Origin: Escherichia phage Chlobot
DNA: 46,491 nucleotides
Sequence record: PP925838.1
Strand: one strand, 5' to 3'
Under the pieces are notes generated by a model. That model did not search any database. It saw nothing but the letters and a program-made list of their open reading frames with translations, and was not told where the DNA came from. Shown one piece after another: positions 16,241 to 16,855 of the stretch (positions within the stretch are counted from its first letter, which is position 1; the number at the start of each line of letters is the position of its first letter). The position numbers and the translations under genes were made by a program.

Positions 16241-16855
16241 ATGAAAAAATCAATACTAATTTTAGGGCTTACGTTAATTGTCTCATCTCAAATACCATCG
16301 GCAATGGCAAAAAATGAATCAAAACTATGGGTTGTTGTTGATCAAACGGAAAGACATACCTGCCCTTCAAGTAAATGTGGAGTGGCTGGGAAACTATTTT
16401 TCAGGGAAGGCGTAGATTTTCTAGAAAAAAAAGGTGAATGGGTTCGTATAACTGAGCCATATTCAGCCTCATGTGTTGGAGGGGAAAGCGAATATATTAA
16501 AGAAGGTAATAAATCCTGCACAAGAAAAAATGGAATCGTTAATGGCAAGTTTTCAGAATGGGTTAAACTTAGTGATCTTAGCAGTGAAAGGCCATCAGAT
16601 CCTGCTGAAAATGCGAGCGGAGATGATACTTTAATCAAAGGATCTGATGACTACCGTATATACAAAAAAGAGTTTTCTTCGGCAGCTAGGAAGTTAATAA
16701 ATGAAGGGGTCTGCACGGAAAGCGATTTTAAGGAAATCGGAGGGTGGATGGCATCAAGCAATAAGGGTGAAAACATCTATTTCACATATTGCGGAGGAAT
16801 GACGTTGTCGAACAGAATATACCTAGATGTTAAAAGTGGAAAGACTTTTAGATAA
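16241..16855 (+). CDS. Secreted cysteine-containing hypothetical protein (204 aa), AT-rich moron
   Basis: Signal peptide MKKSILILGLTLIVSSQIPSAMA; six Cys in the mature part; AAGGAAA ribosome-binding site; own terminator downstream; low GC relative to flanks. Confidence 0.6.
   Translation: MKKSILILGLTLIVSSQIPSAMAKNESKLWVVVDQTERHTCPSSKCGVAGKLFFREGVDFLEKKGEWVRITEPYSASCVGGESEYIKEGNKSCTRKNGIVNGKFSEWVKLSDLSSERPSDPAENASGDDTLIKGSDDYRIYKKEFSSAARKLINEGVCTESDFKEIGGWMASSNKGENIYFTYCGGMTLSNRIYLDVKSGKTFR

Follow-up and report, generated by a model that had tools for sequence, protein, structure and literature searches.

T4 Spackle (Sp) and the lysozyme inhibitors Ivy, MliC/PliC, PliG and PliI are small periplasmic proteins, often disulfide-bonded and non-enzymatic, which protect the sacculus from muralytic enzymes. 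The SH3b module is used by lysins, NlpC/P60 enzymes and S-layer proteins for attachment to cell-wall polymers. Other envelope proteins are encoded by the lambdoid morons, for example bor and lom of lambda and cor of phi80, N15 and HK022. Here we describe an accessory gene of Escherichia phage Chlobot that invites comparison with all of these. The gene (the cargo gene) lies in sequence record PP925838.1, whose 46,491 nucleotides are referred to as the window. On balance we consider it probable that its 204-residue product is a small non-enzymatic protein of the cell envelope, carried as mobile-element cargo and having a general envelope-modifying or envelope-shielding role.

That the protein is exported and contains disulfide bonds is almost certain. 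Its N-terminus (MKKSILILGLTLIVSSQIPSAMA, followed after the predicted cleavage site by KNES) comprises a basic n-region (MKK), an 11-residue hydrophobic core (SILILGLTLIV) and a c-region (SSQIPSAMA, to be cleaved before K) with Pro at position -5 and Ala at -3 and -1 (A-x-A). The signal peptide was called by sequence rules alone, and by these rules the three regions are those of a secretory signal. In the AlphaFold model the predicted local distance difference test score (pLDDT) does not reach 50 at residues 1-24 but exceeds 93 from residue 30 onwards; the low-confidence N-terminus fits a cleaved signal peptide. An AxA-type c-region is kept in most homologues of a 43-sequence alignment. In about a quarter of the aligned homologues (~11/43) the signal peptide is replaced by a lipobox and a low-complexity tether, and in a few homologues its place is taken by a cytoplasmic zinc ribbon and a transmembrane helix. 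The interchangeability of signal peptide, lipobox and membrane anchor indicates that the conserved part of the family is extracytoplasmic. The Chlobot copy does not have the features of a lipoprotein processed by signal peptidase II: there is no cysteine before residue 41, and the match to Pfam LPAM_1 (14.1 bits) stays under the 20-bit cut-off of that family.

The AlphaFold model, calculated on the same 43-sequence alignment, has a mean pLDDT of 90.3 and a predicted template modelling score of 0.73. It predicts two tightly packed domains connected by a conserved linker (RPxDP), which is modelled with high confidence. The assignment of the N-terminal domain to the bacterial SH3b fold is strongly supported by the model: fold comparison identified it as an SH3-type beta-barrel. 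The match of Pfam SH3_3 (PF08239) to residues 40-72 of the protein stays under the threshold (E 0.013, 16.2 bits, gathering cut-off 27). A precomputed PF08239 match exists for 10 homologues, and among the 40 longer relatives 24 are matched by SH3_3 (lowest E 1.6e-14). The domain contains a conserved insert (residues ~74-106), stapled by the C78-C93 pair. A search of PDB sequences also returned de novo designed TIM barrels with E values down to 1e-8. These matches were rejected as an artefact, because the score was summed over four repeated helix units and no single stretch passes by itself.

The C-terminal domain, predicted to be a helix-on-sheet module, carries the motifs SDD[YF], GGW and YFTYCGG. 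It is an undescribed domain family, having neither a name nor a Pfam entry nor a structural relative. The whole protein is matched over its full length by PHROG 8310 (phrog_8310, function unknown; E 2.7e-136), and 82 homologues of it were found. Database labels are "hypothetical protein" and, once, "SH3 domain-containing protein". Searching by accession, PHROG identifier or keyword, we found no publication on the protein.

The six cysteines (C41, C46, C78, C93, C158 and C184) are all located in the mature chain. All of them are kept in 41 of the 43 aligned homologues and in 143 of 194 two-domain sequences (pattern CCCCCC). Disulfide pairing was read from the patterns of co-loss across homologues. 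Among the two-domain sequences 26 lack all four cysteines of the SH3 domain, yet have C158 and C184, and in two others C41 and C46 are present and C78 and C93 are gone (CCx-CC). Both C158 and C184 occur in every one of 144 stand-alone copies of the C-terminal domain. Because the cysteines vanish in consecutive pairs, the comparison of homologues supports the pairing C41-C46, C78-C93 and C158-C184 as the probable one. Consecutive disulfides are the pattern made by DsbA without isomerisation.

These results bear on a first-pass annotation of the same DNA, which had described a secreted protein with a signal peptide and six cysteines in the mature chain, loosely resembling SH3-like folds and perhaps being a periplasmic binding protein. 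The basic n-region, the hydrophobic core and the A-x-A end, together with the drop in pLDDT, the c-regions of the homologues and the exchange of anchors, agree with the signal peptide; the count of cysteines is exact and their conservation high. The stretch likened to SH3-like folds is the very one matched, under the Pfam threshold, by SH3_3, and fold comparison confirmed an SH3b domain there. If a transporter-type substrate-binding protein was meant, the last suggestion must be abandoned: in place of the two-lobed alpha/beta fold of such proteins the model has an SH3b barrel and a small new alpha/beta domain of ~80 residues, and no substrate-binding protein family is among the Pfam or NCBIfam matches.

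The protein is most likely non-enzymatic. No catalytic family was found for it in Pfam, NCBIfam or PADLOC, it has no conserved histidine and no free cysteine, and the parts to which relatives are fused are anchors or binding modules only; we take these features together as the grounds for the conclusion. A profile of the C-terminal domain matched 535 clusters among 1.84 billion representative proteins. The domain is found alone, behind an SH3b domain, or as the last part of longer extracytoplasmic proteins. Stand-alone exported forms of ~100 residues are present in Agrobacterium, Rhizobium, Sphingomonas and Marinobacter, among others. What the longer relatives have in addition is never an enzyme; besides the 24 of 40 with SH3_3 the additions include the zinc ribbon with transmembrane helix, and Ank, IalB, Imm_superinfect and HIRAN were encountered as single fusion cases.

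The taxonomic spread of the family was determined from 77 loci in species-representative genomes. Full-length relatives occur across Alpha- and Gammaproteobacteria (Rhodobacteraceae, Rhizobiales, Vibrio, Pseudomonas, Shewanella, Marinobacter), with few outside. Some of them have plain chromosomal surroundings, such as the order metX-metW-gene-pheST. For the most part the family belongs to chromosomes and mobile elements of Proteobacteria, where it is widespread, and it is not phage-specific, a point that the first-pass annotation had missed. BLAST clustering of three neighbours on each side revealed no partner gene kept across 61 loci, the only synteny being at genus level in Vibrio. The lack of a conserved partner suggests that the gene works as a stand-alone unit.

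That the gene moves between different types of elements as single-gene cargo is strongly supported by its distribution. It was detected in 133 of the 5,426 complete genomes of E. coli, in almost every case within the same prophage context, and the protein is absent from all 50,697 phage records of INPHARED. A P1-like phage-plasmid of E. fergusonii carries a copy with 84.6% nucleotide identity, located right after hot and an intact humD, near cre and c1. Homology to this copy is restricted to positions 16099-16857 of the window, i.e. to the 142-bp leader and the coding sequence. The neighbourhood of humD in the P1-like element and a humD scar to the right of the gene in Chlobot, both read from sequence, point to exchange between lambdoid and P1-like elements. 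The ratio of nonsynonymous to synonymous substitution between the two copies is 0.08 (dN 0.059, dS 0.744), which indicates strong purifying selection on the protein.

More distant copies, with 57-70% protein identity, are carried by a 5.3-kb ColE1-type Citrobacter plasmid, whose other two genes are uninformative, and by Pseudomonas islands, an Aeromonas prophage and IMG/VR phages. The Pseudomonas copies directly follow a tyrosine integrase in a recurrent small island (six loci, L002, L003 and L009-L012), in which the order is tyrosine integrase, homologue, a regulator-like protein of 208-236 residues (phrog_129) and three to four open reading frames (ORFs) without a family. In the Aeromonas prophage (L005) the gene stands between a Q-like antiterminator and a holin. 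In IMG/VR phages the copies neighbour the lysis cassette or the head module and are often the sole gene on their strand; one homologue (L134, 4837-5822) comes after endolysin and Rz spanin genes, and another (L143, 7174-7725) is divergent from an endolysin gene. The closeness to lysis genes in these three diverged phages could reflect either a usual hot spot for accessory genes or a link with lysis. In all four loci from higher-GC hosts the gene is more AT-rich than its locus.

Large conjugative plasmids of Citrobacter, Klebsiella and Enterobacter have likewise acquired a piece of the prophage in which the cargo gene lies. The Citrobacter freundii plasmid pA18-1 (L015, NZ_CP022274.1, 110199-123299) contains at least 3.1 kb of the prophage, corresponding to positions 15001-18136 of the window at 99.9% identity. 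Captured stretches of this type, which reside on large plasmids in Citrobacter, Klebsiella, Enterobacter and E. coli, extend from a DUF1317 gene to the DUF2513 gene and are flanked by prophage-remnant genes (trkG, a lysis protein gene), IS5 and an ars operon.

In the window, which has the vegetative gene order of a lambda-like temperate phage, the cargo gene is co-oriented with the delayed-early pL operon and lies between exo and xis (Table 1). The tail and head genes come after int on the opposite strand, and the same gene order is given by RefSeq for an identical prophage that is integrated beside ybhC. Homology to lambda ends at ~15989 inside ea22 (the megablast match extends to query position 690) and resumes at ~17980, just before xis. 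Judged from nucleotide homology, the intervening mosaic segment of ~2 kb is a replacement for lambda ea8.5 and the C-terminal part of ea22. RefSeq labels the remaining ea22 stretch as a frameshifted, incomplete Ea22-like pseudogene. A unique stretch of 150 bp with the terminator also belongs to the mosaic segment. The humD fragment has 83-91% nucleotide identity to humD of P1, P7, D6, PhiR41_1 and ~640 P1-like plasmids, and its RefSeq label is 'DNA repair protein, incomplete'.

Table 1. Features of the cargo gene and its surroundings in the window (PP925838.1)
Feature	Coordinates	Strand	Basis or remark
Bet gene	13277-14062	same as cargo gene	upstream of cargo gene
Exo gene	14059-14739	same as cargo gene	upstream of cargo gene
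Truncated ead/Ea22-like gene and left mosaic junction	15691..15989	+	Pfam Ead_Ea22, E 1.3e-20
Upstream leader travelling with the gene	16099..16240	+	84.6% homology to P1-like phage-plasmid begins at 16099
Cargo gene, coding sequence including stop	16241..16855	+	ATG start, TAA stop, 204 residues; ORF list, PHROG 8310
Predicted Sec/signal peptidase I signal peptide, residues 1-23	16241..16309	+	n-h-c architecture read from sequence; predicted cleavage between AMA and K
Predicted SH3b domain, residues ~27-112	16319..16576	+	holds CxxxxC pair C41-C46 and insert ~74-106
Unnamed C-terminal domain, residues ~125-204	16613..16852	+	predicted helix, helix, three strands; C158-C184
Intrinsic-terminator-like hairpin and U-rich tail	16925..16966	+	stem 16925-16934 / 16946-16955
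Internal fragment of P1-family humD (UmuD'-like, Peptidase_S24)	17006..17111	+	recombination scar right of module
Remaining non-lambda mosaic	17112..17980	+	Cys-rich ORF and DUF2513 gene
Xis gene	18235-18453	+	downstream of cargo gene
Int gene	18431-19501	+	downstream of cargo gene

The G+C content of the cargo gene is 0.379 and that of its third codon positions 0.298, vs 0.452 for the flanking phage DNA. In a sliding window G+C drops to 0.35-0.41 over positions 16100-17000, with ~0.5 on either side. A good Shine-Dalgarno sequence (AAGGA, 16229-16233) is spaced 7 nucleotides from the ATG. The hairpin downstream of the gene has a perfect 10-bp stem (AAAGCCCGCA/TGCGGGCTTT) and an 11-nucleotide loop; its free energy is -16.9 kcal/mol, and it is followed by GTGTTATT. 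The 61-nucleotide context folds at -22 kcal/mol (z-score -3.06), none of 200 shuffled sequences being as stable. A simple scanner called the terminator on the minus strand only, because of the 11-nucleotide loop. The minus-strand T-run after the hairpin (TTTTCTTAT) is better than the plus-strand one, and there is no nearby minus-strand gene needing a terminator; the structure may be bidirectional. A hairpin whose stem core is similar stands ~78 nucleotides past the stop codon of the P1-like copy, and homology between the two terminators is confined to a core of ~20 nucleotides.

A moron in the sense of Hendrix and Juhala is an extra gene of deviant composition, placed between modules that adjoin each other in related phages, with a terminator of its own downstream and a promoter of its own that is active in the lysogen; the position, the composition and the terminator are observed here, and for the promoter there is a weak candidate. 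The AT-rich coding sequence and the strong terminator that the first-pass annotation had pointed out are accordingly real, and its view of the gene as accessory cargo of a temperate phage accords with the foreign base composition, the terminator and the replacement of ea8.5 and of the ea22 C-terminus.

The 142-bp leader contains a weak sigma-70-like pair of hexamers, TTGAAG (16111-16116) and TACACT (16135-16140), separated by 18 nucleotides. Both hexamers and the Shine-Dalgarno sequence are conserved in the alignment with the P1-like copy. No LexA box and no sigma-E motif were seen when the leader was read by eye, and no Rfam family was detected within 15800-17300. Repeats flanking the module are inverted matches of 10-12 nucleotides, the chance level for AT-rich DNA.

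Two other genes share the mosaic segment. A 112-residue ORF (17149-17487) has a Cys-rich C-terminus (CGKCG...CPCNGDSQC) and no Pfam family; its DNA is ~90% identical to a TL-2011b gene annotated 'transcriptional regulator'. A DUF2513 gene (17516-17944) is located ~660 bp downstream of the cargo gene. In Marinobacter litoralis (L098, 5401-5763) a DUF2513 gene is positioned right after a stand-alone copy of the C-terminal domain. A functional association with DUF2513 was considered and rejected: the pairing occurs in this prophage and in Marinobacter and at no other of ~80 loci, and is probably coincidental co-cargo.

The envelope role that we favour can be put as a sequence of steps. Carrying a Sec signal peptide, the protein would, once exported, be oxidised by DsbA in the periplasm. 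Its SH3b domain, by analogy with the fold class, would dock it on peptidoglycan, and the C-terminal domain would bind a second envelope ligand, protein or glycan, without catalysis. Transcription from pL after induction or infection is expected from the position of the gene; the weak conserved promoter-like site (16111-16140) could permit expression in the lysogen, and the terminator would keep such lysogen transcripts out of xis and int. The most plausible benefit to the carrier would be that the sacculus is altered or shielded, for instance against muralytic attack from outside, although this part of the scheme is a guess.

Several points weigh against this scheme. Peptidoglycan binding is deduced solely from the fold class, SH3b domains bind teichoic acids, proteins and metals as well, and the best Z score in the structural comparison was 7.7, which is moderate. 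The scanner found no plus-strand promoter with a score of at least 9/12; nine aligned upstream regions share no common motif, and distant copies do not have the TTGAAG/TACACT site. In E. coli PSS-16 (L099, NZ_AP027713.1) the cargo gene is split by IS1 after ~48 codons, and such natural knock-outs, seen in at least two genomes, show it to be dispensable. Many Alpha- and Gammaproteobacteria have the family as an ordinary chromosomal gene, and its primary role may be in housekeeping envelope biology rather than phage-related.

A conversion or exclusion role, as proposed in the first-pass annotation, is plausible, and one alternative gives it a definite form. The protein could be a dedicated envelope immunity or exclusion factor, parked in the sacculus by the SH3b domain and inhibiting incoming muralytic enzymes by its C-terminal domain. 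The targets would be tail lysins of superinfecting phages, amidase or muramidase effectors of type VI secretion systems, or lysozyme, the logic being that of T4 Spackle or of orphan type VI immunity proteins. PADLOC returned no match for the protein, and fold comparison gave no structural similarity to known lysozyme inhibitors or to Spackle. We regard this explanation as unlikely. Still less likely, in our judgement, is its extension, according to which the SH3b domain and the C-terminal module constitute an unrecognised class of sacculus-anchored protective proteins, the C-terminal domain being a new inhibitor fold; the module would then be traded among lambdoid phages, P1-like phage-plasmids, ColE1-type plasmids and integrase islands, whose hosts it would shield from the muralytic attack of superinfecting phages or type VI effectors. 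The gene could instead serve the phage's own lytic cycle, its product acting in the periplasm either to adjust lysis, for instance through binding to peptidoglycan, the endolysin or the holin ectodomain so that wall degradation is delayed or localised, or to guard the infected cell against lysis from without. Its orientation in the pL operon between exo and xis, the proximity of lysis genes in L134, L143 and the Aeromonas prophage, and the habitual partnership of SH3b domains with lysins would suit such a function. The same gene, however, is carried by a ColE1-type plasmid and by integrase islands, and occurs in plain chromosomal contexts that have no lysis genes; the lysis/packaging slot is a general hot spot for accessory genes, and in the phages concerned the gene is frequently the sole one on its strand, an arrangement that speaks against co-transcription with the lysis genes. 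We hold a role in lysis to be improbable.

The layout of an SH3b targeting domain and a second domain resembles that of many cell-wall hydrolases, and S135, D136, D137, D162, S172 and N191 are invariant or nearly so. From this one might suppose that the C-terminal domain is a new catalytic module, such as a peptidoglycan hydrolase or transferase, targeted by SH3b as in NlpC/P60 enzymes or lysostaphin, with S135-D136-D137, D162 and N191 as candidate residues. But neither sequence nor fold matches a catalytic family, a conserved His, a conserved Glu pair and a free Cys are all lacking, and the cysteines of the domain behave as a disulfide pair; ~80 residues forming three strands and two helices are little for an active site, and the domain is frequently found alone as an exported protein of ~100 residues. 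An enzymatic function appears very improbable. A factor of host interaction or virulence conversion, such as an adhesin or a protein conferring resistance to serum or host defence like Bor or Lom, at or beyond the outer membrane, is the explanation to which we give least credence. It would agree with an exported product of a temperate E. coli phage present in human and animal isolates, and fusions to an IalB-type module and to ankyrin repeats occur in one relative each. Against it, similarity to Bor, Lom/Ail or other known factors was not found, the Chlobot copy, having no lipobox, has no features targeting it to the outer membrane, and it is in marine and soil Proteobacteria, which have no animal host, that the family is most common.

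If the mechanism proposed for the envelope protein is true, a compact portable envelope module is exchanged by very different elements across Enterobacteria, Pseudomonas and Aeromonas. Identification of the ligand of the C-terminal domain would allow the numerous "hypothetical exported proteins" of this family (>500 clusters) to be annotated, and could bring to light a new way in which prophages and plasmids alter cell-wall vulnerability. As it stands, the cargo gene is another uncharacterised phage accessory gene, unsurprising in kind and useful for annotation.

Compared with known SH3b proteins, the Chlobot protein stays under the Pfam cut-off and has no recognisable enzyme attached. The SH3b domains used for comparison were Pfam SH3_3 (PF08239), the SH3b domain of lysostaphin, binding domains of phage endolysins, accessory domains of NlpC/P60 proteins and PDB 9ovi (B. 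anthracis GBAA_2967). Unlike all of these, the domain described here has two predicted disulfides and a conserved insert of ~30 residues (YSASCVGG...NGI..G.F.EW). The extracellular C-terminal subdomain of MapZ (PDB 2nda) and cystatin-like and PepSY-like helix-on-sheet modules are also among the closest known systems. The likeness to T4 Spackle and to the lysozyme inhibitors is one of concept only, the characteristic folds of Ivy, MliC/PliC, PliG and PliI being absent. Neither family searches nor fold comparison showed the protein to resemble known lambdoid envelope proteins such as Bor, Lom/Ail and Cor, or SieA/SieB, Imm or Sp. The cargo gene differs from the lambdoid morons in its unrelated sequence and fold, in its location in the ea region of the pL operon and not beside lysis or tail genes, in its occurrence on non-phage elements, and in having only a weak, sub-threshold candidate for a promoter of its own. 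Like them, it is a single accessory gene of deviant composition, inserted with a terminator between conserved modules, and it encodes an exported protein that is dispensable for phage growth.
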